A program made the translations under genes and the position numbers. DNA of 61,370 nt, filler included, from Jimgerdemannia flammicorona (Eukaryota): the NCBI GenBank assembly GCA_003990765.1. It is 3 parts of 3 records of this genome, joined end to end, with 100 filler letters (N's around TTAATTAATTAA, not from the genome) between each part and the next. Parts side by side here need not be neighbours in the genome. Positions count along the whole stretch, not along the records: positions 1 to 20,396 come from RBNJ01001693.1; positions 20,497 to 40,887 come from RBNJ01001694.1; positions 40,988 to 61,370 come from RBNJ01001695.1. One strand, written 5' to 3'. Within the stretch, counting starts at the first letter, position 1. Every line of letters starts with the position of its first letter. Below the pieces are notes generated by a model that ran no database searches, was not told the origin of the DNA, and saw only the letters and a list, made by a program, of their open reading frames with translations. Positions 1 to 54,306 of this stretch are shown piece after piece.

Positions 1-294
1 GCCATCCACTCCCCTTCACCTTGTCAGCAAAGCTGGAGGGGCCAGCCCTTCCCCTGTTACCACCTGACACCGGTCCTCCTCCAGAGCCCTCCCCGCCCTT
101 CGATCCTCCAAAGGCCCCCATCCCCAGGCCAAAACCCCTCCCCACCTCCTGCCAGCCGAAAGCCCCAGCTCCCCCCGACCCAGTACGCCCGTCGGAACTC
201 TTGTTCGAAGACATGTTGATAGTACCTTTTCTCCTAGTAGTGTCGAAAACTGTTGCCTGAAGTCTTGTGTAACGTGAATTGTACCGGAGAAAGG
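1..294 (-). mobile_element. 5' end of L1/Tx1-clade LINE, family C (young, CpG-retaining); ORF1 starts MSSNKSSDGRTG at ~214; inserted into S1 copy 1
   Basis: The minus strand begins CCTTTCTCCGGTACAATTCACGTTACAC, matching the LINE-B 5' ends at 23962 and 54306 (CCTTTCTCAGCTA.CATTCACGTTACAC). The ORF1 N-terminus is similar (GAFGWQEVGRG vs SAFNWQQVERG). Confidence 0.75.
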
Positions 295-296
295 TG

Positions 297-3229: not shown

Positions 3230-3268
<39 letters not shown>

Positions 3269-6200
3269 GAACTCATAGTCTCGCGGATTTTTATTGGAAG
3301 GGAACCTAGAATATAGGCCAAAACTCTCCCCCACCACCCACCAAACAATATCCCCCTATTAACCTAGGCTACTAAATTGTCCAGCAGTCCCACCACTCTA
3401 GCTATGCCTGTCGAACACTGGCTATGTCGACCCCCACAACATAGACTAGACTTGTCTGCTCCCCAGGACTGGATCATCATTTACACATGAGAGCACACCT
3501 ATGTGTTGGATCTAGCAGTGCTGGGACTGAATAAAGAATAGCCCCCCAAACCCCAAAAGAAAGCCCAAGGTAAAGAAAAAACCCCCCAACCAATCAACAG
3601 GGAGCAAAGTAGATTCAAAGCAGGTGAGTAAAGAACTTAAATACAGTACCTTCTACAAAGGACTTATACATAGGCTAGGGCCTAAAGAGACCCCACTCCC
3701 ACTTCTCGAGCCTGCAGGCCTCAATCATGTTGCCATGTCAGCTCCTGGTTCTAGTCAGGTACTGCCAAATGAGGAAGATCCCACTCCCCAAGCCTGTGGG
3801 CCTTGATCATGTTGCTATGTCAGCTCTCGGTTCTAGTTGGGTATAGCCAGGATGCCAGCCCCTGCACCACCCCACCCCCCACCAGCTAATCAAAAGACCC
3901 TACCAAAATATTATCCACCCCTGCCCCAATGACTGCCCCCAGCCTGGCACCCTACTGGTTCACCATAATCACCCTTCCTCTTATCTGTGACAGCCATCTC
4001 TCCTCCCATCCTGACATCACCAAATAACAGTCACCTACACCAGAACTGTGCTTGCTGGGAAGCTTGCCAAAGCCAGAGGGCCCCACCACAGACACCGAGG
4101 ACCTACAGGTAACTTACACTGAGCACTTGATGCCCAAGGTTGGCCGACTCTCTATGTAGCCCAAGACACACTGAGATAGCACCTTGTTGGCGATGGCAAA
4201 AGGAAGAAGATGCTGCACCAAAACGGATGCACTCTAGATGCAGCCGAAGACACCAGAAACTATGAAAAAGTGGAGAAGACACTGATCCAACACTGATAAA
4301 GGGGCAACTCATCACTATTGCCCTCCTCCCACTATGCCCATACAGGCACAGCAAACCAACCTGAGGTAGAGGGGGTAATAATAGGGGAAAGGGAACTCAG
4401 AAGGTTGCCTACCAAACCTTGTGACTGGTAAGGTAGCAGAGAAAGATTTCAAAGAGCAGCTACCATTGCTATCACCAACTTAGACTCCTGTATTGCTACA
4501 TTGAGAAATCCTTCCCATACCTCCTGAGCTCCATGAAACACATCCACTTCCTTGATATCTTCTTTAGCTAGCTCCTCAAGTACCACCTGATACCAGCTCT
4601 CCACCATCATCACCAGGAGCCCAGGAGTCGAAGGCCTGGGGGTCCTACTCAGCTCTTGCAATTGTTCCCTATCTGCCAACACATCAGAAGCCATATCCAC
4701 TAGCTCATCCTCCTCTACCACTTTCTCCAAATGAATTACCTCACCAGCTTCTGGGCACTCCTAATGAACATTCACCACCCCAGCCATATGGGTGTCCTCC
4801 ACCTGAGTCTCCAGTACCACTTCAACATCAACCTCAAAGCCTCCTTCACCAACCTCCTCCTTATCCACCCACTTTCCTCTCACCGGCACATGTGCTGAGT
4901 TCTCTACACCATCCAGCTGGGAGAAGGACACCTCTGCCACCTCTACTCCTTCCATCTGATTCTTGGCTGCCTCTACTCTTACCTCCTCTTCCACTGCTAC
5001 CCCTTGAAGGACCACCTGCAGATGCTCCCAGTTTCCTTTCCTCCACCTCTTCCACTTGCCATCTGCCTAGATCCAGACCCAATCCTTGGTGTACTCCTCC
5101 CACTTCCTCTTTCATAGCTCCTTGGCAGCCTCTCTCTCCTCCAGAGCAATTGCCAACTCTTCCTCCTCCTGTTCTGCTCCCTTCCTCCTCCACACCTTGC
5201 ACTCTTGCCCCCCAATTCTAATCCCCTCAGGCCAATCATAGTCCAGCCCAGTTGCCTTCTTGTCTTTCAGTCACAGCATCATCTTGCAGTTGTCATTTCT
5301 CTACTTGGTGCCCTCCCAGAACATAAACCCAAAGTCCACCATCTCACTATATCCACTCAGTACCTCTACCACCATCTCCTTGGTCTCCTGTCTGCCCAGG
5401 GTTGGCAGTCCTTCTACCATCAGCTGAACAGCATATAGATCCCACCTCAGACATCTTGCCATCTCAATCCAGACACTCTTGACTGTCATCCCTTTCTCCA
5501 GTGCCTTCACCATTACATTCTCCTCCACAAATCCAATCTCCACAGCCTCTGCTGAAGGGATGAACTTCAGAGATTCTGCCCCAGCCACTTCCTCCCCCAT
5601 CAGTCTCAGAACCTCCCTCACTGACATCACCAATCCCAGGAAGTTTGCTGAGATTGTCCATATCAATACCAATTTGTGGAAGCAGGGCCTCACCACCAAC
5701 TCACCTATCCCAGCTGCCAGCATCATCTTTCTCTTGGTCCCTGAAACATCTGTAGTTGTCCCATCAGACAGAGCTATGCCACCTGCAGTCCTCTCCCCAG
5801 TCACCTGCCCAGCCACAGAAGAATCAGTCCCTAGCATCATACCACCAGACCCCTATCTCCTACCAGCCACCTGACCTGTCACCTGACTTGTCACCTGACC
5901 CCTCCCCCTGTCAACACTATACCCCCCCTGTCCTACCCCTATGGGCCTAGCTGCAGCCCTCCTATTCTCATCCACCATATACTAGGCCTCAATTCCACCA
6001 GTTCTCCCATGCCTACCAGCCCCTCCTGCAGTCACACTAGCCCCTGCAGTAGCTGCAAAGCTCTTGGGAATATCCAGACCAGACCTCCTCCTCTCTAGAT
6101 GCTCAGAGCTAGAGGAATCTTGACTAGCCATATCGCCAAAACTTGACAGTTTTCCTTGAAACTTGTTGTGCCTTATAGATAGACTCCTGCCACATGATGT

Positions 6201-6301: not shown

Positions 6302-6302
6302 C

Positions 6303-9255
6303 TAATATCATATATCCTGACTTTAAGCCATCTGAATAGCTGCCACCTCTTAATGCCATCTTGCAATCTATTGACATTGATCGATAAAATATGTAAACTG
6401 TTCATCATCATCAAAGAAATTGTTTAAAGCTCAGTAGGGATTGCCACAACCTTCTCAGCCCTTCCTCTAATGATCTCTTACTGGTTCTCACAAATTGCCC
6501 TTCAGATTTGATCTTTATTTGCACTGCTACAGAACAGGTCTACTCTTTCTGCCACCACCTTCCTGATGTTGGCCATTCTGCTCTCATCAACATCATATCC
6601 TTCATTATTCAGAAGAGCTGCTATCATTGCTGTCACCAGCTTAGGCAAGAAATATTCGACACAGCTGGTCTTCAGTTTTGCAAGAAGATGGTGTTGAGGT
6701 TACTAGTGTAGCAGATATGTTGGAGGAGATTTCGGGACAATAGTGGACCCTCTGGAGTGATGATAATATGGGAGGGGGTGCTGGAGTAGGGGATGTTGTG
6801 GAGGCACCTCTTGTATATAACTGGCCAGTGGTGCCACTACTAGAGATAGGAGCTTTAGTATTAGGCAGAGTGTCTTTGGAGGAGGTGTTGGAGGTTCTGC
6901 AGAAGACATCAAGTGGTTTATCACCTGGGGAGAATGGACTTCCTTGGGAGTTTTGGAAGGAGTTTCAGGTGTAATTTGGGGCTTAGCTTGTTGAAATGGT
7001 TAATTTTGTACTGGAAGAAGGACAGTAGATTGGGAATGAAAGCTTAGGTCTGGTGTCTTTGCTGTATAAGGAGAAAGGTGACAGGAGGAAGTAGCATAAC
7101 TGGCGGCCAATCATGCTGTTGAATGTGGACAGAAAGCTAGTCTCCAAAATCTTGGTAGAGAGATTGTAGCAGTGGATTGGAAGACTGGTAGGAGAGGAGC
7201 AGAGGGGCTTTGTGAAGGGTTGGCAGATTAGGAACAGTACTGCCTGGGTGCAAAATATTTTGGAAGACTGTAGGAGTCAGAAGGTTGATGGGAGAATAGT
7301 CTTCTTGGATCAAGAGAAGGCTTATGATAGAGTATGGTGGAATTATCTAGATGCAATACTCTAGAAAGTAGAATTTGATCTTGGAGAGATTGGAAGATTG
7401 ATGGGGCTAGTGTGAGGCTATTGAGGGGTAGTACTGATGAATGGCTGGAGCAGTCTGGAGTTTGCCTTAGGAAGAGGGGTTCCACAAGGGGACCCTCTTT
7501 CTCTGCTCCTTTACATCCTCTCACTAGAACTGGTGCTGGCCTGGCTAAGAGGACAGCTGAATAGATTGCATATAGGTGAGGTAGTATGGAAGCTGGGGGC
7601 CTTTGCAGACAACATGGTGGTGGGACTCAGCAGTGTGGTGGATGTGGATATTTTAAGAGATAGAATAGAACAGTATGAGGGGTTGGCAGGTGCAAAGTTG
7701 AATTGGGGAAAGTGTGAAACCTTAGAGCTTGGTGCAGGCTTAGGGGTAGTGGGGTTTGGATGAGTGGTGCCTAAGGGGGAGGCAGTATGGTACTTAGGGA
7801 TATGGTTTTCAGTATTCAGGACCATTTTGTCAAGGGAGTGGTAGAGTTCTATGGTATAAAAATGGGAAGGTGTGCTGATGGGCTGGGCTGGTCAAAACAT
7901 TTCTCTGGTGGGAAGGGTGGTGGTCCTGAATATATACTGGCTGCCGAAGCTGTGGTACCTGGATTATCACCTAGATTTCCCTGGATAGGTGGTGCAGTGT
8001 CTCAAAAAGGCTATTGAAGGGTGGCTCTAGAGGGGTAGATGGCTACAGATTGGATGGGAAGCATTGATGCTACCAATTACTGATAGCAGTTTGGGGTTGG
8101 TGGACTTTTGGTGAAGGTTGAAGGCACTTAGGGGCTGGTGGGGTCGCCGACTAGTAGAGTTAGGGGAAGAAAGCTGGGGCAGATTAGCGATGGACAATTG
8201 GGAGATCAGATTCTGCCCCCAGAGTGCAGAGAGAAAGGATTTGCGAGGGCTACTTCAGGTTGGATCCATGGGGAGGATGAGGTTCAAAGGGTTCTGGTGG
8301 GGCATTGTTGAGGCCTGGCTTATGATGGGCCTAATGGGGTCAGAGGTGGAGGCAATAGAGAAGGGGGTGGACCCTAAGTAGCAGTGATGGCAACTTAGAC
8401 TACTAAGGGTAGGAGGGAAGAAGCTGAAGGGCTATTCTTTGGTTGAGATAATAAAATGGGCCAGATCAGGCCCTCTTGAGTGGTGGTCAGTAGGATGGCA
8501 GACAACTGGTATTGGCGAGATATGGGAATGGGGTAGAATTTAGTAATAGACAGCTACTTTGAATAAGGTGGTACCTGTAATCCATCTCAGGAAGATAGTG
8601 TCATCCTTGTGCAGGGGCTATGCTAATCTTCTCTGTATCATTCCAATTTTTTCAGGTGTCAGAGGTCCCGAAGAACTTGACAGAATAAGGTGGTATCTCC
8701 TTGATATTGGATAGTTTGGTGGAGGTTCCTGAGAAGGAATGTCATATTGAACTATTAGACAGGATGGATGGTGGCTGATGGAAGCAAGAATTGTGAATAG
8801 TATGCTGAGTTCTCTGGAGAAGTGGTTCAGACCCCAGAGTATATCATAGAGGCCTGCCCAGGAGTGGAGGGTTATTGGCAGATGCTGGAGGAATACTGGG
8901 GTTCTGATCGAAGGAGGCTGGGAGAGTCTATCAGTGTTGTCACTTGGAGGAGACTGATGGGGGATGTTAGGGACATTTGGGGAGATATTGGGCAGATTTT
9001 GGGAGTGTGGATCTTAATGGTGATACACTGGCAATGGGTCTTTGAAGGCCAATGTTGGATGGGAATTAGAGACCTAGTAGAGCAATAGCATTGGCTAGTA
9101 TGAGAAGTAGTACAGAGTTGGTGGTACCAGGGGAGGCAGCAGGAGTTGGGGGCAGTAAAGAAGGTATAAGACATTGTATTGGAGAGTCAGGGTTATTTGA
9201 CACTAGGTAAGGATGGGGTACAGTGAAAAATTGGGGCGAGTTGATAGGATCTGTT
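6303..9255 (+). mobile_element. LINE-A copy with inverted 5' segment (6303-6645 minus: ORF1 end/EN start; ~6650-9255 plus: RT and C-terminus), degenerate
   Basis: The plus strand encodes SPGENGLPWEFW, NWRPIMLLNVD, LDQEKAYD, GRGVPQGDPLS, AFADNM and WYLG. The minus fragment matches 2930-3230. Confidence 0.85.
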
Positions 9256-9261
9256 AGGGGA

Positions 9262-12183
9262 GACTTCTTTTGCTCAAACCATTTAGAGTGATCTAAGTCA
9301 CACAGACATCTTTTCATAAAAAGCAATATGTTTTTAAGTTTTCACTTCATTTATACTGGTGTGCAAGGTATGGCAGAAGTCTGGCAACAACTCAAAACAA
9401 GTTTTGTCAAAATCCATCAAGTTTTCATGGTATGGCAACCCAAGACTCATCAAGCTTGGAGTGTCTAGAGAGGAGGAGGCCTGGCCTGGGCCTCCCCAAG
9501 AGTTTTGTGGCAGCAGCAGGTCAAGGTGGAGCTGGAGGGCAGGCTGGAGGTTGTAGACCAGTGGTAGGATTGGATGGTTGGCACACAGTGGTTAAGAGTA
9601 AGTGGGCAGCTACTAGGTCTATAGTTAGGGAGCAGTAGGAGCATAGTATTGACAGAAGTAAATGTCAGATGACTGGTCAGCTGACTGGCCAAGGACCCAG
9701 CAGGGGTCAGAGATCCAGAGGTATGATGGCTGGGACTGGCTTTCCTGGGGCTGGGCTGGTGGCTGGGAGTGGGACTGCTGGTAGTGCAGTGACTCCTAGT
9801 GAGATAGTAGCTAGCATATCTGGTAGTAAGAACAAGGCAACTCTGGTGGCAGGAACTGGGGAGCTAGTGGTATGACCATTCTTCCATAAGTTGGTATCAT
9901 TATGGGCAGTCTCCACCAACTTCTTGGGCCTTGGTCTATCAGCCAAGGAAGTTCTATGACTGGTGGGTAAGGAGGTTGCAGGGGCTGAGTCACTGAGGTT
10001 TATCCCCTCAGCAGAGGCAGTGGAGGTTGGATTTGTTGAGGAGGAGGCTATGGTGAAGGCCTTGGAGAAGGGATTGATGATCAAGAATATTAAGGTGGAG
10101 ATGGTGAGGTGCCTGAGATGGGACCCACATGTAGTGAGGTTAGTGGTGGAAGGACTGCCAATACTGAGTAGGCAGGAGACTAAGATGGTGATCACTAAGG
10201 CTCTAGAAGGCTTTGGTGAGGTGGTGGATTTTGGATTTATGTTTTGGGAGAGCACAAAGTTGAGGAATGACAATTGTGAGACAATGGTGTAGCTGGAGGG
10301 GAAGGAGGCAACAGGCCTGAGGCAGGACTAGCCAGAGATTATTTGTGTTGAGGAGCAGGATTGTTGGGTCTGAAGGAGGAAAGACTCTGAGCAGGAAGAG
10401 GAGGAGCTGCTGATAGCCCTTGAGGAGCATGATGTGGCAAAGGCTTTGTGGAAAAGGAAATGGGAGAAATTTGCAAAAGATTGGATCTGGATTGAGATGG
10501 ATGGTAAGAGGAAGCATTGGCATAAGGCAAACTGGGAGTGGCTGCAGGCAGTGCTGCAAGTGTCTGCAGAGGAAGAGGTTGAAAGGGTAGCATCTGACAG
10601 GAATCAAATAGAAGGGGTTGAGGTGGCTGAGGTGTCCTTCTCACAGCTGGGGAGAGTGGAAGAATCTGTGCATACACTGGTAATAGAGAAGTGGGCAGAT
10701 GGTGAGGAAGAGTGAGGAGCAGACTTCGAAGAAAATATTGAGATGGTTCCAGAAACTCAGATGGAAGACATAGTGATGGCTAGGTCAGCGAATATACACT
10801 GGGAGTATCCAGAAGCAGGGGAGGTGGTGAGGTTGGATAAGGTCTCTGAAGAGGATGAGTTGGTGGATGTCACTTCGGATGTATCTGCAGACAGAGAATT
10901 GCTTCAGGAGCTGTGCAGGACTCCCAGGCCTGTAACTCTGGAGCTGTTGGTGATGGTGGCAGATGGCTGGTTCTGGAGGAACTGGCAGAGGATGACATTA
11001 AGGAAGTGGATGTATTTCAGAGTTCTCCAGAGGCATGAGAAGGATTTCTCAAGATGACATTGTAGGGACCAAAGCTGGTAATGGCAATAGTGGTAGCCCT
11101 TCTGGAGGATGAAGGGTATAAGGTGGATGATGACTGAATTGCAGATATCTATAAGGTGGCATCTGAGTGAGTAGACTTCTTCTGTGGCGGTGACAATGAT
11201 AAGAGAATTTGGCAGGCAGTCTATGAGGAGCATCGAGACATCATTAAGGGCTGAGCTGAGAAGGTGGCAGCAGTGGCAGCTGATATCTAAACTCCAAATT
11301 TTTCATGATGAAGTACAACCTACAAATTCTGTCTATCAATGTCAATGGTTTGTGAGATGGTGTGAAGTGGTGGTGTCTCTTTTGATGGTTGAAAGTCCGG
11401 AGGTATGATGTAGTGTTCCTTCAAGATATTTGGGTCTATGGTGAGGAGGACTATGAGTCATGGAGTAAGAAATAATTTGGAGATACTAGTTGGAGTAAGC
11501 AAGTTGGTATTCTGATTAGGGTTAGAAAGGGGAAGTTAGTTGATGTGGAAAGTTTTGGTGATCAACTAGTATGGAGAAGGCTGAAGAGAGGAAAAGGAGA
11601 TGGACTCTTGGTGGGCTCTGTATATCTGCCAGCAGTTGGCAGAGAGCAAAAGCAATGGGTGGAGGAGTGGCTGGCTTGGGAGAATTGGGTGGCTCTAGGG
11701 TTGGATATTTTGCGGGTGATTTTAATATGATTAGGGACCATGTACTAGACCAGTCTGATGGCAGGGCTAGTGAAGCAGTTTCTCCGGGGCTATCTCAGTG
11801 GCTTCAGGTGGAAAAGGGCATGAGATTGATAGATGGTATACGAATGAGGGCAGGAGATGAGTCAGGCCCCTTTACCAGATGGCATTCTATAGACAATGAG
11901 ATGGTTGATACATGGATTGATTGGGTACTGGTAGCTGAACATTGGGGTAATGTTTTCAATACAGTCAGGATATAGTGGTACCTATGGTCAGACTATTGGG
12001 GAGTTGAGGTGAGTGGAAGATTCTAGGCTATTAATGGGAGAGGTGGGTGCTGGCATCTTAATGTAGCTCTGCTCTGGCATCCAGTAGAACAAGAGCAATT
12101 CATATACTTGGCCTGATAGGAAGTAGAGCAATAGATGGCTGGTGGTCTATCTATTGCTGATTGGTGGGGCAGATTCAAACACT
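9262..12183 (+). mobile_element. LINE-A copy: 5'UTR, ORF1 (9432-~11290), ORF2 endonuclease (~11310-12183), truncated at the S2 insertion
   Basis: Starts GACTTCTTTTGCTCAAACC. ORF1 begins MATQDSSSL. Endonuclease motifs are LSINVNG, GSVYLP, AGDFN and WSD. Confidence 0.9.
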
Positions 12184-12540: not shown

Positions 12541-13348
12541 TGTAATAACTCTCACTTCTATCCCTCTCTTATCCTTTGGATAATTAGGGAAGTAGACTAT
12601 TACTTAGGGACTTAGTACACAATGTGTACCAAGAAGCCTTCAGTTTGAGGAAGTGCTCACTTAAAGTAGTTGTAGCAGCAGTGCCTTATCTTTCAAAGGT
12701 CTTTTTCTGGTTCGCCTTCTGTTTCAAAGGTCTTTCTCTTGTGCCCTATTTCGAGGGTCTTGTTCTTTGCTGTGCACAGACTAAATTCGCCTTGGAATTC
12801 AGGTTCAATGGGTTTACTTAAGTCTTTGGGAATTTATATACCGGTCTCAGTTCTGGCAGAAGTTAGCTAGGCTTCTGGAGTTTAGTCAGAAACACTAGAG
12901 TCACTTAGATGTCATTACTAAGACTCAGGGGAATGTGTGTGTGTGGGGGGGGACTTGATTCTTGTATCAAGGACTGAACTAAAACTACTTTATTTCGGAT
13001 GAAAAACTGGGGGGTATTTATACAAGTTGGTCCGCGATTTCTGACTAAGTATGAGTGACTAATTTGGTAACTATAATGAGGTTTGTGTTCGCGACCTTTG
13101 TCAGGTGGTTTTTGGCAAAAACAACTTTATGATCAGCACCTCAATTACTAGGCAATGATCAGCTGCTGTGGTAACTATTGCTGTGGTGCCAATTGTTGGG
13201 GATAAGCTGGATATCGTTTTCCACATCATTTTGCATCATTCGTTTGTTACTTGCTATTCATATGTCGTGCTTGATCATATGATGATGTCATCACTGAGTC
13301 ATGTGATCACTCGTCGTCCATTACATCCCATCTGTTCGTCCTATTACA
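12541..13348 (-). repeat. 3' LTR (outer copy, ~810 bp) of chromovirus Gypsy-1
   Basis: TGTAATA...TATTACA termini. PPT AGGGGGGAAGGA at 13349-13360 (minus). Near-identical to 14697-15487. Confidence 0.9.
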
Positions 13349-13359
13349 TCCTTCCCCCC

Positions 13360-14250
13360 TTAGAAATCAACATCCTCGTTGATTGAGAAATTGAGAACCA
13401 GGGGAGAAAAAGGTGGAGAATCTTCCTCAGGGGCAGGGGGGGTGGTTGTTGCTGATGGCTCGCTGTCCAGGATGGAGAAGTCGATGAGGTCTGCAAATGG
13501 TTCCTATACTGGGATAGGTGCTGGTATAAGGGTTCTCTATCTGATGCAGTTGTGGCCATCCAAGTAGGGCTCTTGATCTTCATGTCTGGAAATATCCATT
13601 CAAATAGGTGGTCCTTCAAAGAGGTCAGAGAGGCCTTGGAGCCATTGGTCAGAGTTGTCATTCAGGAGGGGGCTCCAGTAGGGTTCGCAGTCAGTAGACT
13701 TGAGGGTAATCCAGGAGTTGGCTTCTTAGGTGACCTTGACTTCTAGGGCATTGACCTCAGGGAAAGAGAGGTTCTAGAAGTCCTTCAGTTGTATGTAGTT
13801 GAGGTTGGGGATCATGAAGGGTGCATGGTACATGATTTGATGGACCTTCTTGGCAAGTCTTTGCTTGTACCTGTCTAGGTGAGTCCAGTCAGAGACTTGG
13901 TCCATGGGCAGGTCCTTTGCACATTGGAGGAGTTGATGGCCAATCTTGTATTCGTACCAGATTTCTAGGCAGCTGGTAGCAAGGTAGGCCCTTTCAATGA
14001 GTTCACAGCAGTCAAGGACATACTGTCCTAGGTCTGGGCTGGAGAGGTTAAGGGCCTCAGAGCAGTGGTTCCTTCTTTGGATGGCAACCTGGATGTGTCC
14101 AAAGAGGTGGTCAACCTGGCTAGGGAGGGGCTGGCTATGGTGGGCAGTTTGGCGGTGGGTGGCAGGTATTCTTGTCTTGTCTTTTCTTTGTGAGGAAAGG
14201 GGGATGAGAGTTGCAGGGTATTCTTGCCTTGGGTATTTATACTTATTCAC
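13360..14250 (-). pseudogene. Extra ORF3 (~290 aa, unknown function) between pol and PPT, duplicated copy
   Basis: Frame NKYKYPRQEYP...LNYIQLKDF continues through decay stops to ...LNFSINEDVDF*, ending at the PPT. Paralogous to 15499-16409. Confidence 0.6.
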
Positions 14251-14696
14251 CCATCTGATGTGATCTTCCTTTGGTCATGCTTTCTGGCAAAATGCATGAC
14301 CTATGCTATAAGTGGAGCATATGCTGGTCACATGAGGAAATCTTGATTTCAAAGATCTTGTCACCTATAGTTGTGGTTACACAGGGTTAACAGGTCTTGG
14401 TCCACTTTTTTTTTTGTCTGGTTGGCGCATTTGTGAGGACTGGCCATCCTTGTCTAGGGCGAGGGCTCCTATTGTCATGGCTGGGGGTTCAAACCTCTCG
14501 GAAATAGACTTTCTTGTAATCCGAGGCAATTCTTAGTAACAATATCTGTCACGTGGATAGACTTAGACTGGTTTCGACATTGTCAGCTTTCCTAAGTTTC
14601 ACATGAAGTGTCCATCATCATCCAGCAGAGATGACACAGATGGTGTGAAATGGAGTTGTTCAAATGCATTTTGCTGTACTGTACTAGATTGTTCTT

Positions 14697-15487
14697 GTAA
14701 TAACTCTCACTTCTATCCCTCTCTTATCCTTAGGATAATTAGGGAAGTGGACTATTACTTAGGGACTTAGTATACAATGTATACCAAGAAGCCTTCAGTT
14801 GAGGAAGCGCTTGCTTAAAGTAGTTGTAGTGGCAGTGCCTTATCTTTCAAAGGTCTTTCTGGTTTGTCTTCTGTTTCAAAGGTCTTTCTCTTGTGCCCTA
14901 TTTCGAGGGTCTTGTTCTTTGCTATGCACAGACTGAATTTGCCTTGGAATTCAGGTTCAATGGGTTTACTTAAGTCTTTAGGGATTTATATACTGGTCTC
15001 AGTTCTGGCAGAAGTTAGCTAGGCTTCTGGAGTTTAGTCAGAAATACTAGAGTTACTTAGATGTCATTACTAAGACTCAGGAGAATGTGTGTGTGTGTGG
15101 GGGACTTGATTCTTGTATCAAGGACTGAACTAAAACTCCTTTATTTCAGATGGAAACTGGGGGGTATTTATACAAGTTGGTCCGTGATTTCTGACTAAGT
15201 ATGAGTGACTAATTTGGTAACTATAATGAGGTTTGTGATCGCGACCTTTGTCAGGTGGTTTTTGGCAAAAACAACTTTGTGATCAGGACCTCAATTACTA
15301 GGCAATGATCAGCAACTGTGGCAACTGTTGCTGCGGCGCCGATTGTTGGGGATAAGCTGGATATCGTTTTCCACATTGTTTCGCATCATTTGTTTGTTCG
15401 TTATTCATATGCCATGCTCGATCGTATGATGAGATCATCGCTGGGTCACATGATTGCTTGTCATTTGTCATTCGTTGTTCTATTACA
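14697..15487 (-). repeat. 3' LTR (inner copy) of Gypsy-1
   Basis: Same TG...CA termini, with PPT at 15488-15499. Confidence 0.9.
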
Positions 15488-15498
15488 TCCTTCCCCCC

Positions 15499-16409
15499 TT
15501 AGAAATCAATGTCCTCGTTGATTGAGAAATTGAGAACCAGGGGAGAGAAAGGTGGGGAATCCTCCTCATGGTCATTACCATCTTCTTCAAGGGCAGGGGG
15601 GGTGGTGGTTGCAGATGGCTCACTGTCCAGGGTGGAGAAGTCAATGAGGTCTGCAAATGGTTCTTGCATTGGGATAGGTGCTGGTGTAGGGGTTCTCCAT
15701 CTGATGCAGTTGGGGCCATCCAAGTAGGGCTCTTGATCTTCATGTCTGGGAATATCCATTCAAATAGGTGGTCCTTCAAAGAGGTCAGAGAGACCTTGGA
15801 GCCATTGGTCAGGGTTGTCATTCAGGAGGGGGCTCCAGTAGGGTTTGCAGTCAGTAGACTTGAGGGTAATCCAGGAGTTGGCTTCTTGGGCGACCTTGAC
15901 TTCTAGGGCATCGACCTCGGGGAAAGAGAGGTTCTGGAAGTTCTTTAGTTGTATGTAGTTGAGGTTGGGAATTGCGAAGGGTGCATGGCATATAATTTGA
16001 TAGACCTTCTTGGCAAGTCTTTGCTCGTGCCTGTCTAGTTGAGTCCAGTCAGAGACTTGGTCTGTGGGCAGGTCCTTTGCACATTGGAGGAGTTGATGGC
16101 CAATCTTGTATTCATGCCAGATTTCTAGGTAGCTGGTAGCAAGGTAGGCCCTTTCAATGAGTTCATGGCAGTCAAGGATATACTGTCCTAGGTCTGGGCT
16201 AGAGAGGTTAAGGACCTCTGAGTGGCAGTTCCTTCCTTGGATGGCAACCTAGATGTGTCCAAAGAGGTGGTCAACCTGGCTAGGGAGGGGCTGGCTATGC
16301 TGGGCAGTTTGGCGGCGGGTGGCAGGCATTCTTGTCTTGTCTTTTCTTTGTGAGGAAAGGGGGATGAGAGTTGCGGGATATTCTTGCCTTGGGTATTTAT
16401 ACTTATTCA
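15499..16409 (-). pseudogene. Extra ORF3 of Gypsy-1 (original copy)
   Basis: Ends ...EEDSPPFSPLVLNFSINEDIDF* abutting the PPT. Sense to pol. Confidence 0.6.
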
Positions 16410-16974
16410 CCTGTCTGATGTGACCTTTCTTTGGTCATGCTTTCTGGCAAAATGCATGACCTGTGCTGTAAGCGGAGTATATGCTGGTCACATGAGGAAA
16501 TCCTGATTTCAAAGATCTCATCACCTGTAGTTGTGGTTACACAGGGTTAACAGGTCTTGGTCCACTTGTTTTTTTTTCTGGTTGGCGCATTTGTGAGGAC
16601 TGGCCATCCTTGTCTAGGGCGAGGGCTCTCATTGTCAATGCTGGGGGTTTGAACCTCTTGGAAATAGACTTTCTTATAATCTGAGGCAATTCTTTAGTAA
16701 CAATATCTGTCACGTGGATGGACTTAGACTGGTTTCGACATTGTCAGCTTTCCTAAGTTTCACATGAAGCGTCCGTCATCATCCAGCAGAGATGATACAG
16801 ATGATGTAAAATGGAGTTATTCGAATGCGTTTTGCTGTACTGTACTAGATTGTTCTTTTGCTCAGGTATCTTCTTGTTGGTTATCCATAGTATTCCTTTT
16901 TTCACAATGTTTGGTATTATATGTTTCCAGTTAAAAATGTGTGGTATCTTTCTGTTCGCGGTGTGCTCCTATAC

Positions 16975-19900: not shown

Positions 19901-20396
19901 TCTTGTACTGTACAGATGAAGTAGGTCTTTCCCTTTTTTTGAGAGAGTCTCTTCATTTAAATGGCAGAGATGATTTCGATTCCTTGGTAGTTGGTACCTT
20001 CCTGGGGTATCAGGGTGATCTTTCTGCCTTCATGGGTCAGGTTAACCTCGTTGGTTCTCCAGTTGATGTCTGGGTTGTGCTGGGTCAACCAGGCTTTTCC
20101 TAAGATAATGTCTTGTCCTGGGAGGTCTACAATGCTGAAGTCCAACTTCTCTTGATATTTGCCAATCTTGAGCCAAAGGTCTTCACAGATCTTAGGCAAT
20201 GGTGCAGTCTTTCCATCACTGAAGGTAACACTTCTTTTCTCAGTAGTTGGTCTGCTTTGGGCTCCAATTCTCTTGGTGGTCTTAGTGCTGATGTAGTTTC
20301 CAGTAGCACCACTATCAAGCAAGATATTGACATTTTGTCTGTGGACTTGGCCTGTGAACTTGATGCAACTATCCTCCTTCTTGATGGTATTGAGCT
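16975..20396 (-). mobile_element. pol: Gypsy-1 chromovirus pol (protease-RT-RNaseH-integrase-chromodomain), degenerate; 5' part lost at the gap
   Basis: [62 protein letters not shown], and chromodomain FEIEEVLDH...FLIKWKSYPTHDATWE. Confidence 0.95.
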
Positions 20397-20496
20397 NNNN
20401 NNNNNNNNNNNNNNNNNNNNNNNNNNNNNNNNNNNNNNNNTTAATTAATTAANNNNNNNNNNNNNNNNNNNNNNNNNNNNNNNNNNNNNNNNNNNN
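20397..20496. other. Artificial assembly spacer (N44-TTAATTAATTAA-N44)
   Basis: Exactly 100 bp with a six-frame stop linker; repeated at 40888-40987. Confidence 0.97.
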
Positions 20497-29813: not shown

Positions 29814-29885
<72 letters not shown>

Positions 29886-32314: not shown

Positions 32315-32390
32315 CTTATATCTCCTTTATGACCCTCATCTTCTCTCACCTTTTGGATGCTGCCCTCTTCTATAGCTTTGATGTCTATAA

Positions 32391-33584: not shown

Positions 33585-33594
33585 AAGATGCATG

Positions 33595-34210
33595 TTTATA
33601 GCTATTTATTACTAGTCTATATATAAATTTACATACTCTCCTCCCACTATCTAATCTCTATAGAGGAACCCCCCCCCTCTCCTACTCCTTTATACTTAAA
33701 AATTACCCTGTCTCCTACAACCCCAACCCTCTCTCTGCTCTGTCCACATATCTTCTCTACTAAATGATATTGCTAACCCTCCTGCAATCCTCACCCAAGC
33801 CTCTAACCCATCAGAGTATCCTCCATCAGCCTTTCTCATTGCAACAGTTATACCCCTAAGTCCAGACATCTCTCATCCTCAAACACATACAGCCAGTGAC
33901 CCACCAACCCTATCTATATAGCTAGTACCTACTCTAAAGTAAGCTACTCTCTCCCAACCCCTCTCACCAATCTGTCCCACAGATCCTCCCACTGACTCCA
34001 CACACCATTCTCCTCCACATAACACCCAACCTCTCCCCAACTGCTATTCAAAAGTCATTGAGCACCTCATACTTCCTTAGCCAATATTCAGATATCTGTA
34101 CTAAACCCCCTTTCTGTCCAACATTATGGCACTCTTTACAGTCAAAGGATCTCTCTTCCACCAGGTGGCCAGAGTGAAAGTTGAGCATAACATTCCTTCT
34201 CAATATACAT
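33595..34210 (-). mobile_element. 3' fragment of a LINE-B/C-like element (ORF2 C-terminus, AATAAA, no poly(A))
   Basis: Reverse complement resembles 29200-29800 (ECHNV, GIR* stop region, AGACTAGTAATAAAT). Confidence 0.75.
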
Positions 34211-34815
34211 CACCAGACCACCCAGTCATAATGTTCTCTTTGCCACTACTGACATCAATGCTGTCTATCATTTCCTTCTTATCTATACCTCCTTTGTCAC
34301 TCATCTTTATGAGTAGAAAATATCTCATACTGCTACTGCTACTTATGCCACTACTACTACTCCTGCTCCTGCCTCTTCTGAGGTCTCAGTCTCTAAGACC
34401 ATTTGTACTAAGGCCCATACTACCACTCATACTGAGGTTTGTTCCTTTACTACTTCACTACTATGTATTACTGCCAAGGTCCCCACCAAGTCAAACAAGA
34501 CTTCATCAGCCTTTTCTCAGTTGCCCTCTCCTGCTAAGGCCTCCTCAGTTCCCCTACTCTCAAGTATAACTATACTCTTAGTTCTTGCCCTATTGGGGCT
34601 TAGCCATATACTATCTGCTCTAGTCACCTCCACTATATCTACTGGCATCCAGTTAAGTCTGTATGCCCCCATGGTGGTATCTCTCACTCTGTGACTCCTT
34701 CTACTGCTTGTTCTCCCTCTATCTCCTCTATTGGTTCTTCCTCTATCTCCTCCATCTATGTCTCTAAATGTAAGGATTATATGAAAGCCTATGGTCATAA
34801 GGTCTGGTACTCTGG

Positions 34816-38400: not shown

Positions 38401-38408
38401 TGGAGAAA

Positions 38409-38907
38409 ATTAAAAAACATCCTTACCCCCTCAGGGATCTCATGCTCACTCTGGGGTCTTGGCCTTCACTCTGCTCTCCTCTGTTATCTTTGGCCTCTTA
38501 CTTCACTTAGGCTCACTGCAGCTCACTCTGTTTTGGCCTCACTCCTTGCTCATGCTCACTCCTTGGGGGTCTGCAGATGTTTTTTAATCTTAATTTGAAT
38601 TTATTTTATTTGTATTTATTTATAATTTTTATCCTATAACTGAGATTGACTCTCTCTTTATCTTTGCTTATCTCTGACAGTCATGTGGTTCCTAATTCAA
38701 TTACTCCTGTGTTGTGGCATATCTTTTCTTTTTTGATCTTATATTTTATATATAAGGATCATACTTTTGTAACAATAAATAGCTGATGCATTTAGTTATA
38801 TTCTTTATTCATCTCTCTTATATATACCTTTCCATATGTCTTCTATTTACTTTGATCATAGCTCTGGGTTTACTTTCCTGGTTCTCACTGGGTCTTCTTC
38901 CTCTACT
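38409..38907. repeat. Second copy of the hairpin spacer plus arm, in direct orientation to 30838-31340
   Basis: ATTAAAAAACATC...GATGTTTTTTAAT flanks the same spacer. The arm is colinear with 31003-31335. Confidence 0.9.
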
Positions 38908-40887: not shown

Positions 40888-40987
40888 NNNNNNNNNNNNN
40901 NNNNNNNNNNNNNNNNNNNNNNNNNNNNNNNTTAATTAATTAANNNNNNNNNNNNNNNNNNNNNNNNNNNNNNNNNNNNNNNNNNNN
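40888..40987. other. Artificial assembly spacer
   Basis: 100 bp of N with TTAATTAATTAA. Confidence 0.97.
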
Positions 40988-44000: not shown

Positions 44001-44725
44001 CTAAAAGATTATAAAAGCCAAAAATACTAAAAAAGACTCTAGTGAAAAAAGTAAAGATAATTGTAAAATATTTATTTATATTACTTACTAACTTGTAGAG
44101 AGAATCTTTAAAATCATTATTAATACTGGAGTAAAAGAATATCTCCTTAATAATAAGGTTATAGACTATCTAGTTTTGAAAATTAAAGAGATTTGTTAAG
44201 TTGATATTTATTATAACAGATGAGATAAGTGCCCTATTTTTAAAGAAGATCTAAGATATTTATCAAGTTTAGAAAAACAATTATCTTAGTTGATATAATT
44301 ATAATTAATACAACTGTATTTAATATTCTTATTAGCAATTAGTAGCTTTATAAGATTAGAGCAATAATTGATATATATAAATGTTTATAAGATATAAATT
44401 ATCTACTGATGATAGAAAATAGACTAGATCATTCTAAAGAAATAGTATTAGAAGATTACTGATAGTTATATCTTAAGAAATATAGGAGCAAAGGTCAGCT
44501 GGTATTAGGTGTGAGAGAAGTGCAGTAGCAGACTAGGATAGGATAGGTTATCTAGGCAGCAAAGGGAATAAAGGGCAGAGAGGAGCAAGTTAGGGATTTC
44601 AGAACTCTCTATATCTGATTTCTTCTGAGCTACTAGCTGCTGCTATAGCATGAGGACATTTTACTATATATTTTCTAAAATAAATAATAAAGTGCTCAAG
44701 CACTTGTAGAAATATATATATATAT

Positions 44726-45173
44726 TGTAACATAGCAGATGCTTAACCTTGGAAGTACATCAGATTTCTGTATCTTGAAAACTTGTTCTTCTTTGACTCT
44801 GCAGAGTCCTCAGGATATAGGGGTGGGTGAGTTCAAAGTATATCTGCCTGCAGGCTTACTAGTTCCTTTGCTTTCTCTTTTGCTTGAACTATTTTGATCT
44901 GAGGTTTATTCACTCTAAGATACTGGGTTATTTATACAAGTTTGCTAGCTATAAAGTGGCTAAGTAATGAGTCATTTTCTGTCAGTATTGAATCTTTTAA
45001 CATCTGTGAAGATTTCACCATCTCTTAAAACTTTGCCAATGGTAAAGTTTTCACCAGTAGTGAAATATGGCTGCTATTTGTAAGACTACACTATATTTGG
45101 GAATTGGATTCAGGTACCACAACAGATGTCTAATTTCTCTAATTCATATTACTAATTTGAATTGACTATCACA
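44726..45173 (-). repeat. Gypsy-2 3' LTR
   Basis: TG...CA. PPT AGGAGGAAGT at 45174-45183 (minus). Paralog of 56872-57320. Confidence 0.93.
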
Positions 45174-45181
45174 ACTTCCTC

Positions 45182-45700
45182 CTAAATAGATGACTCATCT
45201 CTGAAGTATCCTATTCACTCAAACTCCCATGCTTCTATGATTTTTATCTCCTTGTATTGTGCAATTTGTGTCATAACATTCTTCCAATGTTGTCTCTTTT
45301 TTTTTTTTTTTTTTTATACTTCCAATGTTGTCTCTTGATGCATCCAAAGTCAGTTGGGGCTACTTCTGGAAAATGGGCTAGGGCTGGCTCATTATCTCTG
45401 AATAACTTATGCACTCTCTTGGTGATTGTAATCTGAGTATAGGAGAGTTGACATTCCATGATCTAGTCTTCTTTTCCCATGTTTGGCTTTGAATTCAGTA
45501 GCTTCCCTAAGCTGAAGTATTCTTGAAGCTTGGTCTGGTTTTGGTAGGCCTTAAAATGCGAAATCCATGACAAGTGGGTCTGGACTATACTCTGGATGCT
45601 GTTGAAGGATTCCTCTATTATGGGTGGCTCAGTAGAATACCACTGACTTTCTATGGCTCATTGGGTGGCACTTGTGATCCTGAGGGCAGTTGCATTACTT
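45182..45700 (-). pseudogene. Extra ORF downstream of the Gypsy-2 integrase
   Basis: ...KLQEYFSLGKLLNS...TKRVHKLFRDNEPALAHFPEVAPTDF...HWKNVMTQ...DESSI* ends at the PPT after removing the 45299-45318 insert. Start is uncertain. Confidence 0.5.
45299..45318 (-). mobile_element. Minimal L1-type insertion: poly(A) plus ~3 nt
   Basis: 18-bp TSD CTTCCAATGTTGTCTCTT at 45281 and 45319 around T17-ATA. Confidence 0.85.
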
Positions 45701-51400: not shown

Positions 51401-54306
51401 ACTTATCATCTAACAAGGAGGAATTGAGGCACCAATGTCCAGGCCCATCCCCACTCCCCCCAAACTGCCCCTATCCTAAAAACCCCCAATGATCCGACCA
51501 AGGACACCATTCCACTTCCAGAGATTTCCAAACATCCAAGCCCCAGTAGCTGGCCATCAGAATCCAATCTATCCTTGTCCCCAAGCCCCCAGCCCAATGT
51601 GTGTAGACCCTCCTATCCCCCCAACACTTCCTGCTCGCATCTACTAGAGCACTCAGCCTTTCTACTTCCTCCCATGTTGCCAGCCCTCCACTCCAACCTT
51701 TGGCTCCCTGTCCTCTATCAGTTCTGTCTAACAGTCTATCCCGAACCATATTAAAGTCTCCTCCAAGCACATCCACCCCAGCCTCTGCAAGTATCCCACT
51801 CTCCTGAAGGCCTTTTACCCAGTCCACCCACTCACCTCTTACAGTGGGGCAGTAACAAGAGCCCACTGTGACTGGCTCCCATCCTGTACATATCCACTTG
51901 CCCCAGACCAGTCTATCTCCCCAGCTCTGCATATCCCTAATCTCCCCTCTGCCCTTCCATACCAGAATCCCAACCTTGTCCTTCCAAACTGCCTCACCTC
52001 CCCATTCCTTCATCCATTCCATTTTATCCAAGTCATCCTCACACCTGACATCCTGCAAGAGGAAGAGATCGGCCTCCAATCCCTTCAGCCAAGTAAAAAT
52101 GTTTCTACATCGATAAGCACCCCATAACTCATTTACGTTCAAAGAAAAAATGTTGGTTATACTATTCATATTGAAGTATAGTGTGTTTTTTCAGTCCATC
52201 TCTACTGCTCCATGTTCATCTCTTCCTGCACCAAGTCCAGATTATGTTCTGCAGCCACTGCCTCCTCCTCAGCTCACTGAGCCTCCAATCCAGCCAACAG
52301 CTCATTCATCTCCCCATCTGTCTTCTCCTCAAACTCCTCCCAGTACTCCAGGCAGGCCTCCTGCCAGAGCTGCAATCCATGTTGCTTGGCCCAACAGTAC
52401 TTGGCCCTCTCACCAGAAACCCCTGCTAGTTCAGCCTCCTGCTCCTTATCTACCTCATACCCTTCCTTCTCCAGATATACCGCAAGGATCTCAGCCTTCA
52501 ATGCCAACTCCACACCATCTCCCTGCAGGACTTGTGCCCAATGCTCATCACTCATCACTCATAGGTTCACCTCTTCCAACTCCTCAGCCACCAGGTTATT
52601 CATCATCCTGCACATCCAAAGTAGATTCCCTACCTCCTTCCCACCTGGAGTTGCTGGTCTTCCACCATCCAACATTGTGGTATCAGCCCCAGCACTCGCA
52701 GCCTCATCCCACACTTCTGGAACATCCACCAATTCCTCCTCTCCAACTGCCACCATCTGTCCCCCATTCACCACCTCAGGAACTCCAAATTGCACCCACT
52801 GGGCCCCCTTCATTGGCACATCCTCTCCGGACCTGCTCCAGGAGGCTGGACCATGCCTGATGAGAGGAGTAGGGGTAGGTGATCCCTCCCAGTCTTCTTC
52901 CCAGACCTCAAATGTACCATTAGCATATGAATCTCTGCCAGCTGCTTTCCTGTCCTCCTCTGTGCCCTTCTCCATACTTCCACCCTTCTCACCAGCCAAG
53001 ACACTTGCCTTGGCACCCCCTGTTTCCCCCATTCTGCCTGCCTCCTTCTGCGGTCAACCTGCCATCTTAGCCAGTAGCTCCTTCTGATGTTTACGGCCCT
53101 GAGCCCTTTCCCACTACTCCTTGTCCACTCTTATCCTCTTCCCATCAACTACCTCCAAGTGTGTCGACTCCTCAAAAGCCACCCAAGCCTTTACTCGCCA
53201 CTCCACAGCTCCACTCAACTCCTCTAGCACCTCCAGCAAGTCCTCTTCCTCCTCCTCACTCCCCTTCACCCTTGTCACCTTGCACAAGATCACCCCCCAG
53301 ACCATCACTGAAGGCCAGTCCCTCATCTTCCCAGTAGCTTCTTTCCCTGCCAGCCGAATCCTCATGTCCACATCTCCAGTCCTGAGTGAGGTCCCTTCCC
53401 AGACCCTGAACCCAATGTCCACTACCTCTCCATACTTTGCCATGACCTTCTCAACTTTCCTCCTCATCTCCACTGCCATCACCATGGGCACTCCTTTCAC
53501 CAGCAGTTGGACCACCCTGGGGTCCCATTTCAAGCAGCATGCCATCAGTACATACACTTCCCCAACAACCAATCCAACCTTCAGCGCTTCTTCCAGAGGC
53601 TCAGTCTACTCAAATCCCACCTCTACTCCCTCCAATCCCTTCAGGAACTTCACAGATGCCACTCCAGCCACCTGCTTAGCAATCAGCCCCAGCACCATTT
53701 TCACTGTCACCGCCAGGCCCCAGAAGCACAACATCACCGCGAATACCAAGATTGATTTCTTGAGTAATGGCGCCACTGCCAGTCCCATCACACTATCTGC
53801 CAAATCTCCTTGCCTTCTAAGCCTCAGTTGCTCAGCCACACCATCAGCTGTCACATCTGGATTTTTTTCCAGATTGGCAGTCCCATCTCCATCAGCCATC
53901 ACACTCCCCCCAGCCACTACTCCCCCAGCTCCACTGCCTTCACCACCAAGTGCTACTCCTCCATGAATTGCTGTCTTCTCCATCTCCTTGCCTTTCCTCA
54001 GCCAACCCTCCAGCTCAGTCGTCTGCTGTCTCTCCTTCACCATCTCTGCAAAACTCGTCCTCCTGGACCCCTGTCCTCTACCACTGCCTCTACCTCCTCT
54101 TCATCCTCCTGCCAACAGCCCCCTCATGTCGCCCCCCTGGCCAGGACCCACCCCACCTGGTGCCAGTTGAACGCGCTAGGGCCACCCTGCCCAGTACGCA
54201 CCCTAGATTGCTTGTTGTTTGCCATTGCCTTAGTACCTTTCTCCAATAAACAACTTGAAAGTGTATTGTAAGAGTGTGTGTAACGTGAATGTTAGCTGAG
54301 AAAGGG
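48431..54306 (-). mobile_element. Full-length LINE-B; ORF1 54225-~52175, ORF2 52169-48516
   Basis: EN motifs FSLNVN, LQDV, GGDFN, WSDHW. RT motifs NWRPIMLLDIDRK, FLDQEKAYD, PQGDLLSP, FTDD. Poly(T) at 48431-48452. TSD ATTCTTTTCTTCCTCTT at 48415 and 54310. Confidence 0.95.

Follow-up and report, generated by a model that had tools for sequence, protein, structure and literature searches.

Non-autonomous retroposons are usually explained by an RNA polymerase III (Pol III) head and a borrowed 3′ tail of a long interspersed nuclear element (LINE). Here we describe two families, S1 and S2, in which nothing is borrowed but a very short leader at the 5′ end, present in two family-matched pairs of one genome. 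Both families lie in a 61-kb stretch of DNA (61,370 nucleotides, three records joined; hereafter the window) from the Jimgerdemannia flammicorona assembly GCA_003990765.1, and all counts and comparisons below come from that one window.

Two ingredients of what follows are already in print: 5′ leaders common to autonomous and non-autonomous elements of the non-long-terminal-repeat (non-LTR) type, as in Pr77, and fungal retroposons of the RNA polymerase II (Pol II) type that resemble short interspersed nuclear elements (SINEs), as in Eg-R1. Pr77 is described as a 5′ signature of 77–79 nt common to L1Tc and NARTc and to ingi and RIME (SIDER and DIRE are also named), where it serves as an internal, Pol II-dependent promoter (PMC1874656, PMC8190864); it is reported to double as a ribozyme like that of hepatitis delta virus (HDV) (PMC3185411). 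In its published account, Eg-R1 of Blumeria graminis is a Pol II-transcribed, non-autonomous element with no A/B boxes, with internal T-runs and AAUAAA, and with poly(A) RNA, and it belongs there to a set of eight families of the non-LTR type that are "conserved in their 5′ region" (PMC6022598). In a third system, WEIRD/MINE of Magnaporthe, the MGL LINE is described as fusing WEIRD to its own 3′ part by template switching, and 33 chimeras with flanking repeats of 10–20 bp are reported (PMC2104539).

The LINEs of the window whose 5′ ends are intact fall into LINE-B, LINE-C and LINE-B′ (the LINE-B types) and LINE-A1 and LINE-A2 (LINE-A). S1 begins like the LINE-B types and S2 begins like LINE-A, and this likeness is real, family-matched and confined to the terminus, as the leader scores, the scores of cross-pairs, the drop over the next 28 nt and the 28-mer counts all indicate. 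With up to two mismatches allowed, CTTTCTCCGCTA has 16 matches in the window against 4.24 expected, a number reached by none of 100 shuffles. Four of these stand at S1 starts (1350, 4445, 21044 and 42146) and three at LINE starts (293/294, 23963 and 54304/54305); the remainder are two inverted copies of the motif in the 5′ untranslated region (5′UTR) of LINE-B/C, two ends of an unrelated foldback element and five scattered matches. The fifth S1 start, that of S1d at 33582, has three mismatches to CTTTCTCCGCTA and was found by alignment. GACTTCTTTYKCTCAAAC has three matches, at 6301 (minus strand), 9262 (plus) and 34816 (plus), against none expected.

Elements were then compared ungapped, anchored at base 1, over nt 1–28 and over nt 29–56. 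Within the first block the S1 copies agree exactly with LINE-B, LINE-C and LINE-B′ at 16–21 of 28 positions (21–22 with transitions forgiven), and S2 agrees with LINE-A1 at 21 and with LINE-A2 at 18, each rising to 24 when transitions are forgiven. Cross-pairs reach only 5–8 of 28 (S1 against LINE-A) and 8–10 of 28 (S2 against the LINE-B types), and over nt 29–56 every pairing of S1 or S2 with a LINE gives 5–13 of 28. The likeness runs for about 28 nt in S1 and the LINE-B types and about 22 nt in S2 and LINE-A, farther than the 13–19 nt first proposed, and it includes matches beyond the CT tract: CGCTAYC and GTYACA in the former pair, CTCAAACCAT in the latter. When all 122,176 28-mers of the window are set against the S1 leader, only 12 agree with it at 18 or more of 28 positions, and eight of the 12 are S1 and LINE-B-type starts; 16 do so for the S2 leader, among them S2, LINE-A1 and LINE-A2. 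All 10 intact starts have the leader exactly at their terminus. It is highly probable, in our view, that the leader is common to the members of each pair through descent or capture. The central claim of the original prediction, that two non-coding families of about 1.2 kb each match a different LINE only at the extreme 5′ end, thus stands on the anchored scores, with everything beyond the leader at the level of shuffled sequence.

The copies themselves were delimited by self-BLAST and alignment. S1 has six, five with the same 5′ end (starting (C)CTTTCTC) and one 5′-truncated, as had been predicted, and alignment separates them into two subfamilies, S1a/b and S1c–f, which have the first ~570 nt and last ~170 nt in common and differ in their middles. 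S1a (alpha; 1351 to 299, minus strand) has an intact 5′ end (1351/1350), lies in the reverse transcriptase (RT) region of LINE-A2 and is cut in its 3′ part, at 299, by the insertion of LINE-B′. S1b (alpha; 4446 to 3233, minus) is full length, with an A33 tail (3265 to 3233), and is likewise inserted in LINE-A2, between copies of a 9–14-bp duplication, TGGTAGCTG(..). S1c (beta; 21043–22224, plus) is full length and heavily transition-mutated (G+C fraction 0.34), with an A11-C-A10 tail and the duplication TATCTAATTATC, 12–15 bp long (15/17 if extended). S1d (beta; 33582 to 32391, minus) is full length with an A-tail, and its 5′ end abuts a LINE 3′ fragment with no A residues between. S1e (beta; 42147 to 40991, minus) is also full length; its A12 tail is cut by an assembly gap, so that its 3′ flank is uncertain. 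S1f (35890 to 35622, minus) consists of the last ~240 nt and an A28 tail, is nested in S2 and has a perfect 11-bp duplication, TGAGTCTGCCA. Without the tail, the S1 body measures 1145–1181 nt, and AATAAA lies 29–36 nt ahead of the tail.

S2, correctly placed by the prediction at 34816, had been taken for a single copy. It extends to 36309 on the plus strand as a full-length element with an A50 tail, its 795 and 355 nt standing on either side of the S1f insert; once S1f and its 11-bp duplication are set aside, the body is 1150 nt. AATAAA lies 15 nt ahead of the tail, and the duplication GGTCTGGTACTCTG/GATCTGGTACTCTG is 14 bp with one mismatch. The copy that had been missed (12519 to 12183, minus) is 5′-truncated, comprises the last ~320 nt and an A17 tail, is 83% identical to S2 and is inserted in LINE-A1, so that the family numbers one full and one truncated copy. 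A-tails of 17–50 nt are found in S1b, S1d, S1f, S2 and the truncated S2 copy. The expected polyadenylation signal, poly(A) and target-site duplications are therefore all present, with one correction: the duplications span 9–17 bp overall rather than 11–15 bp. They are seen individually for S1b, S1c, S1f and S2; the 3′ end of S1a is missing, that of S1e is beside the assembly gap, and S1d has a duplication only as part of a composite. Both families include 5′-truncated variants, and S1 and S2 carry the marks of target-primed reverse transcription (duplication, A-tail, truncation and no RT of their own). They are very probably non-autonomous retroposons mobilised by LINEs.

The LINE copies were resolved by self-BLAST and by six-frame protein mapping against the best-preserved LINE. 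LINE-B (23962–30048, plus) is full length, 5855 nt with a 232-nt A-rich tail, and encodes a decayed open reading frame 1 (ORF1), an apurinic/apyrimidinic-type (APE) endonuclease and an RT; it has a perfect 15-bp duplication, TATAGAGTATAGATA. LINE-C (54305 to 48430, minus; originally started at 54306) is full length, 5852 nt with an A24 tail, is 83% identical to LINE-B, gives Exo_endo_phos and RVT_1 matches and has a perfect 15-bp duplication, GAGGAAGAAAAGAAT. In both, AATAAA lies 27 nt ahead of the tail. LINE-B′ (294 to 1, minus) is the 5′ end of a third, CpG-rich LINE-B-type copy, inserted in S1a and running off the window. LINE-A1 (9262–12182, plus) retains the 5′ 2.9 kb (5′UTR, ORF1 and endonuclease) and is cut by the S2 fragment and an LTR element; LINE-A2 (6301 to 1352, minus) has its 5′ end at 6301, is interrupted by S1b (3233–4446) and is ended in the window by S1a. 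LINE-A and LINE-B/C can be aligned only as protein, at 35–59% in conserved pieces. A high fraction of full-length copies had been predicted, and intact 5′ ends are indeed found in five of six S1 copies and five of eight LINE pieces, the truncated pieces being 6629–9261, 6303–6699 and 33583–34258.

The prediction had called these LINEs L1 partners. Their architecture is L1-like, with ORF1 upstream, APE endonuclease and RT in ORF2 and a poly(A) 3′ end, and the decayed ORF2 frames match Exo_endo_phos (E 1.1e-05) and RVT_1 (5e-08 and 7.7e-06) in Pfam. The closest solved structures are human L1 ORF2p (E 1.6e-06 to 5.2e-06, or about 1e-6), ahead of R2 proteins. The label is only loosely right, and the clade may be L1 or the fungal Tad1 group. 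ORF1 has no Pfam match and only weak leads to RRM or zf-CCHC clusters (scores ≤0.89). In a protein search restricted to longer proteins, the endonuclease gave one weak match (26% identity, E 1.8e-6) and the ORF1 piece no relative, the latter being weak evidence. Two side observations concern the LINE-B types. The LINE-B tail (29817–30048) is a 232-nt A-rich tract with short non-A breaks, which may reflect expansion of the tail or stacked tail-only insertions. In LINE-B, LINE-C and LINE-B′ (23962–24040, 54305–54227 and 294–216) the 5′ octamer, CCTTTCTC, has its complement in a GGAGAAAG(G) box ~55 nt downstream, just ahead of the ORF1 ATG, and purine boxes also follow the S1 and S2 leaders; as a structural signal this pairing was rejected, since it is not distinguishable from chance in purine-rich strands and the regions fold no better than shuffles.

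Could S1 and S2 be pieces of LINEs? The original prediction had itself raised internal deletions and 3′UTRs of full LINEs, and a 3′UTR extension of a longer LINE subfamily would have the S1d junction as its true structure. The common 5′ leader speaks for an origin of this kind, as does the direct junction of LINE 3′ end and S1 at 33583/33582, without A residues. Beyond the leader, S1a, S1d and S2 score 12–20 in local alignment with every LINE piece, the level of shuffles (means 12.6–14.9, maxima 15–20), and the sole terminal match in these alignments sets S2 nt 1–21 on LINE-A1 nt 1–21. Homology colinear at both ends, as in elements of the half-LINE type, was not found; only the leader is held in common. 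S1 and the LINE-B/C 3′ tails have neither likeness nor a common fold, and among the 3′ ends folded only the LINE fragment 33583–33662 reaches z = −2.16. Five of six S1 copies start at the same base, where truncation of a longer element would give scattered starts; S1b, S1c and S1f, the copies with both flanks readable, carry duplications of their own; and LINE-B and LINE-C end in AATAAA and a tail with no S1 part. With no likeness beyond the leader, S1 and S2 are by these comparisons neither deleted forms nor 3′UTRs of the LINEs in the window, and we find an origin of this sort hardly credible.

The S1d junction has a more telling explanation. The LINE fragment there (34258 to 33583, minus) is 5′-truncated and ~69% identical to LINE-B and LINE-C, with which it aligns to within ~20 nt past AATAAA, that is, to the poly(A) site; base 1 of S1d follows at once. 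The composite, 32379–34272 (minus), is flanked by AAT(G/T)ATAGACA(G/T)CA at 34272–34259 and 32392–32379. The 14-mer past the S1d tail has a single other match with up to two mismatches on either strand of the whole window, at 34272, the upstream edge of the LINE piece, and for this reason a joint insertion of the LINE piece and S1d, as a single event, is the most likely history. An independent insertion of S1d into the tail of the fragment was considered and is weak: the best private duplication is 8/9 with a 9-nt gap, and the A residues that such an insertion would leave upstream are not seen. The simplest readings of the composite would be template switching off the 5′ end of S1 RNA onto LINE RNA, or retroposition of a LINE–S1 read-through transcript. 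Since both require that the S1 RNA was handled by a LINE of this type, the composite appears to tie S1 RNA to the RT of a LINE-B/C-like element. Two further truncated LINE fragments, 6303–6699 (minus) by 6301 and 6629–9261 (plus) by 9262, lie directly upstream of LINE-A starts in the same orientation, making three of three such junctions co-oriented when S1d is included; instead of being nested, they could have been inserted as composites, head to tail, as well.

Nor are S1 and S2 classical SINEs, to judge from the searches for a Pol III head. As predicted, neither a tRNA head nor a protein was found. ARAGORN detects no tRNA gene in the window; Rfam finds only a U6 in the whole window, located elsewhere than in S1 or S2, and at E ≤ 1 nothing in S1, S2 or the LINE 5′ ends, so that matches to tRNA, 5S, 7SL and ribozymes are all absent. 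Five of five S1 copies contain a T5 run at nt 178 and T4 runs at nt 224 and 246, which would stop Pol III. None of the four longest sense frames of S1 and S2 has a Pfam match at E ≤ 1, and in the frame common to S1a, S1b and S1d there is no excess at the third position (0.245, 0.266 and 0.211 for the three codon positions). A 95-aa frame from about nt 131 of S1d was tried as a coding candidate and dropped: it carries no codon-position signal, S1b and S1c have lost its start codon, and it is broken by in-frame stops in all four other copies with full starts. Neither family is detectably coding.

On balance we favor the explanation that S1 and S2 are LINE-dependent, non-autonomous retroposons of the Pol II type that carry the 5′ leader of their partner. 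Their transcripts would be polyadenylated and of the Pol II type, and the APE/RT LINEs of the same genome, acting in trans through the A-tails, would insert them by target-primed reverse transcription; at the 3′ end a poly(A) tail would be enough for priming, as in "relaxed" LINEs of the L1 type. S1 would pair with LINE-B, LINE-C and LINE-B′, and S2 with LINE-A, through the leader and nothing else. We suggest that the leader could be a compact initiator or internal core promoter that fixes the start of transcription at base 1, so that every full-length copy could be transcribed again, and that it either came from the LINE by capture or is preserved in both under one and the same constraint. 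Four observations point toward a promoter: the LINE 5′UTRs are short, the ORF1 ATG of LINE-B and LINE-B′ standing at nt 81–82 and that of LINE-A1 at about nt 111; the leader is conserved within the LINE-B lineage; it is terminal in all the intact starts; and Pr77 provides a precedent. As to conservation, LINE-B and LINE-B′ agree at 23 of 28 positions in the leader and at 10 of 28 in the next block (both ungapped, and indels may lower the second figure), which suggests that the leader is the constrained part of the 80–81-nt LINE-B-type 5′UTR. Taken by itself, the promoter role is a plausible idea that we stop short of calling probable. The more specific proposal of the original prediction, a TCT/TOP-like initiator that would tie expression or ribonucleoprotein capture to one helper LINE, is conjectural. 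Pol II transcription, the pairing of LINE and element in mobilisation and the promoter role are all inferred. A trans-spliced leader was considered and dropped: each family has a leader of its own, and the neighbouring sequence is fungal in appearance, with a TPR_10/TPR_12 gene, a chromodomain LTR element and a spectrum like that of repeat-induced point mutation (RIP).

Several points weigh against this explanation. Everything is drawn from a single 61-kb window with five S1 starts, one S2 start and five LINE starts, and LINE copies within a family do not count as independent. The stretch in common is short. Each of the four leaders is CT-rich, and genes of filamentous fungi often have pyrimidine tracts close to their start sites, so that part of the leader likeness may be generic. 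In five of five elements with clear duplications, 1–11 unrelated bases stand between duplication and leader (nine in LINE-B, four in LINE-C, 6–11 in S1b, and one each in S1c and S2, that of S2 being a G). The start of transcription may thus at times lie elsewhere than at base 1, or else filler bases were added, and a strict view of the leader as an initiator at +1 is weakened accordingly by these extra bases. Neither a downstream promoter element nor an RNA structure or ribozyme came to light, and the 5′ ends show no fold better than shuffles and no common structure (z-scores −1.20 to +1.70). The LINE-A 3′ end lies outside the window, so that S2 and LINE-A may have a 3′ tail in common; RIP-like decay may hide older homology, LINE-A and LINE-B being alignable only as protein. 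Finally, metagenome scans and a protein search found no relative of S1, S2 or LINE ORF1 outside the window: a scan with a 24-mer pattern from S1 gave no match, and one with the S2/LINE-A leader pattern gave 17 loci, none of them window-like beyond the pattern and all with empty BLAST results, which we regard as chance matches.

The chief rival to a promoter is that the leader is an RNA tag for the proteins of the partner LINE, the ORF1 or ORF2 protein binding the 5′ end of the template. Such binding would complete reverse transcription and the joining of the second strand, and would account for family-specific capture and many full-length copies; the 5′ RNA of R2 controls second-strand cleavage. 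The tag would explain the family matching (16–21 of 28 within pairs against 5–10 across) and the frequent intact 5′ ends (five of six in S1, five of eight in LINEs) equally well as a promoter would. In addition, no common 3′ sequence or structure is there to carry specificity, and the LINE–S1 composite puts both RNAs at one reverse transcriptase. Set against this, the leaders have no common fold, short elements are often full length anyway, and the 1–11 extra bases upstream mean that the very end is not strictly defined. The binding itself would be purely hypothetical, and we know of no poly(A)-type LINE that needs a 5′ signal. We consider a tag unlikely, the promoter remaining our preferred function for the leader.

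A second rival denies that S1 and S2 are families of transposable elements. WEIRD is described as a highly expressed, non-coding RNA of 1113 nt that the MGL LINE copies (PMC2104539), and S1 and S2, of similar length and without coding capacity, could be retrocopies that the LINE machinery made from the RNA of one or two strongly expressed non-coding host genes, their leaders, all pyrimidine-rich, being a generic CT-rich start context; the S1d composite is of the same general kind as the WEIRD chimeras. S1, however, comes in two subfamilies with different middles between the same 5′ 570 nt and 3′ 170 nt, which is typical of evolving master copies, and the leader matches exceed the CT tract and are family-specific. 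For these reasons the retrocopy origin is the less likely one. Moreover, WEIRD occurs mainly in chimeras, whereas three S1 copies (S1b, S1c and S1f) are free-standing, each with a tail and duplication to itself, S1a and S1e lack a LINE part, and only one chimera is formed. We judge host-gene retrocopies to be quite improbable, and return to retroposons that propagate with a partner's leader.

If so, one may speculate further that the partner choice of poly(A)-type LINEs is set at the 5′ end, the leader being start-site determinant and family tag in one, and that unrelated non-coding RNAs acquired it twice, by template switching at the RNA 5′ end. The LINE–S1 composite leads us to think that template switching occurs in this genome; the proposal as a whole is nonetheless doubtful. 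It is possible that leader sharing evolved twice, and possible too that a generic style of core promoter lies behind both leader pairs; the case for two origins is weakened by the CT-richness of all four leaders and by the single full-length copy of S2.

The elements are nested in one another: LINE-B′ in S1a, S1a and S1b in LINE-A2, S1f in S2 and the truncated S2 copy in LINE-A1. Transversion distances are 0.7–5.7% among S1 copies and 2.6% between LINE-B and LINE-C, 2.2% between S2 and its fragment and 11% between LINE-A1 and LINE-A2. Beside the LINE–S1d composite, this nesting order and the similar transversion ages may be indirect evidence for mobilisation in trans by a particular LINE. An older LINE-A/S2 wave and a younger, overlapping LINE-B/S1 wave would fit these figures, on the thin basis of a single window.

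More generally, the window is a nest of retroelements in an AT-rich background, with a G+C content of 24–33% between elements and 43–52% within them. Differences between repeat copies are overwhelmingly transitions, with transition-to-transversion ratios of up to 20. From S1d to S1c, C>T changes number 35/60 at CpA, 10/14 at CpG, 20/54 at CpC and 15/98 at CpT, and the G>A contexts mirror this pattern; TpA counts are twofold in S1c and S1e. The spectrum is RIP-like in that C>T is favored at CpA and CpG and rare at CpT, and the excess of transitions and this context bias lead us to regard the host as probably a filamentous fungus subject to RIP or to some process resembling it. The sense strands of all the retroposons are G-rich and C-poor (GC skew 0.3–0.5). 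Two N44-TTAATTAATTAA-N44 blocks, at 20397–20496 and 40888–40987, both within A/T runs, are assembly linkers or gaps; contiguity across them is not assured, the 3′ flank of S1e included.

Other occupants of the window include a chromodomain Ty3-type LTR element (16756–20000, minus; RT_RNaseH, Integrase_H2C2 and Chromo matches), an adjoining 2.1-kb tandem duplication (12541–16857, 91% identical), an LTR-type element with a dUTPase domain (54398–55487, minus) and a 593-codon open frame rich in TPR_12/TPR_10 repeats (58907–60688, plus), for whose N-terminal part the search of longer proteins found no relative, which is weak evidence. A 450-bp repeat pair lies at 44725–45174 and 56871–57321 (92% identical). 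The foldback element at 30522–31338 has inverted arms of ~327 nt around a 154-nt spacer, and a one-arm relative lies at 38406–38907; its tips, at 30522 and 31338, were rejected as S1-motif ends, being at chance level with two mismatches and the wrong polarity. The U6 small nuclear RNA copy is full length (8569–8681, minus, within 8561–8697; Rfam RF00026, scoring 76.7 bits where the gathering score is 44, over model positions 1–105), lies antisense in a 5′-truncated LINE and has 15-bp direct repeats, GAATAAGGTGGTA(C/T)C, on both sides without an A-tail; it looks like a retro-copy made by LINE machinery. A T19 run (45281–45334) between perfect 16-bp direct repeats, CTTCCAATGTTGTCTC, looks like a tail-only, extremely 5′-truncated retroposition event on the minus strand.

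Should the leader prove to be a minimal internal Pol II initiator, it would show how small a self-propagating promoter can be and explain how unrelated RNAs are recruited as parasites of fungal LINEs; in Blumeria, SINE-like elements are reported to make up as much as a tenth of the genome and to adjoin effector genes. Should it prove to be a tag recognised by protein, it would reveal 5′-end specificity in a poly(A)-type LINE. Our search of the literature, with Repbase, Dfam and TREP outside its scope, found no description of family-matched 5′ leaders of LINEs and non-autonomous elements in fungi.

The closest working analogues would be the trypanosomatid Pr77 pairs, in which, as described, non-LTR elements of both kinds, autonomous and non-autonomous, likewise have the same sequence at their extreme 5′ end. 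The differences are considerable. The block here is 22–28 nt rather than 77, two leaders are matched to two LINE lineages, and no HDV-like ribozyme was found at any 5′ end (Rfam, E ≤ 1), the shared block being too short for one. In NARTc and RIME the common sequence takes in further parts of the LINE body or 3′ end; the leader is all that S1 and S2 have in common with the LINEs, and the host here is fungus-like. With classical SINE/LINE pairs, such as Mg-SINE and MGL, the two families have in common that they are non-coding, very probably depend on a LINE for reverse transcription and make target duplications, but they are ~1.2 kb long, have no tRNA, 5S or 7SL head and share no 3′ tail with the LINEs present. 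WEIRD/MINE resembles them in that a fungal LINE copies a non-coding RNA of ~1.1 kb and yields bipartite insertions (PMC2104539). In MINE as described, full-length WEIRD lies 5′ of a truncated LINE, whereas here a truncated LINE lies 5′ of full-length S1; and WEIRD is said not to be a transposable element (PMC2104539), whereas S1 has stand-alone copies and subfamilies.

Closest in kind among fungi are probably Eg-R1 and Egh24 of Blumeria, Pol II-type retroposons classified as SINEs, when their description is set beside the genomic sequence here: S1 and S2 likewise lack Pol III boxes and have AATAAA. Genomic copies of Eg-R1 are described as lacking A-tails (PMC6022598), which S1 and S2 have, and Blumeria is reported to lack RIP, whereas the window shows a RIP-like spectrum. 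What is distinctive here, compared with all of these systems, is the minimal size of the shared piece, the presence of two family-matched pairs side by side, the A-tails and the RIP-like host.

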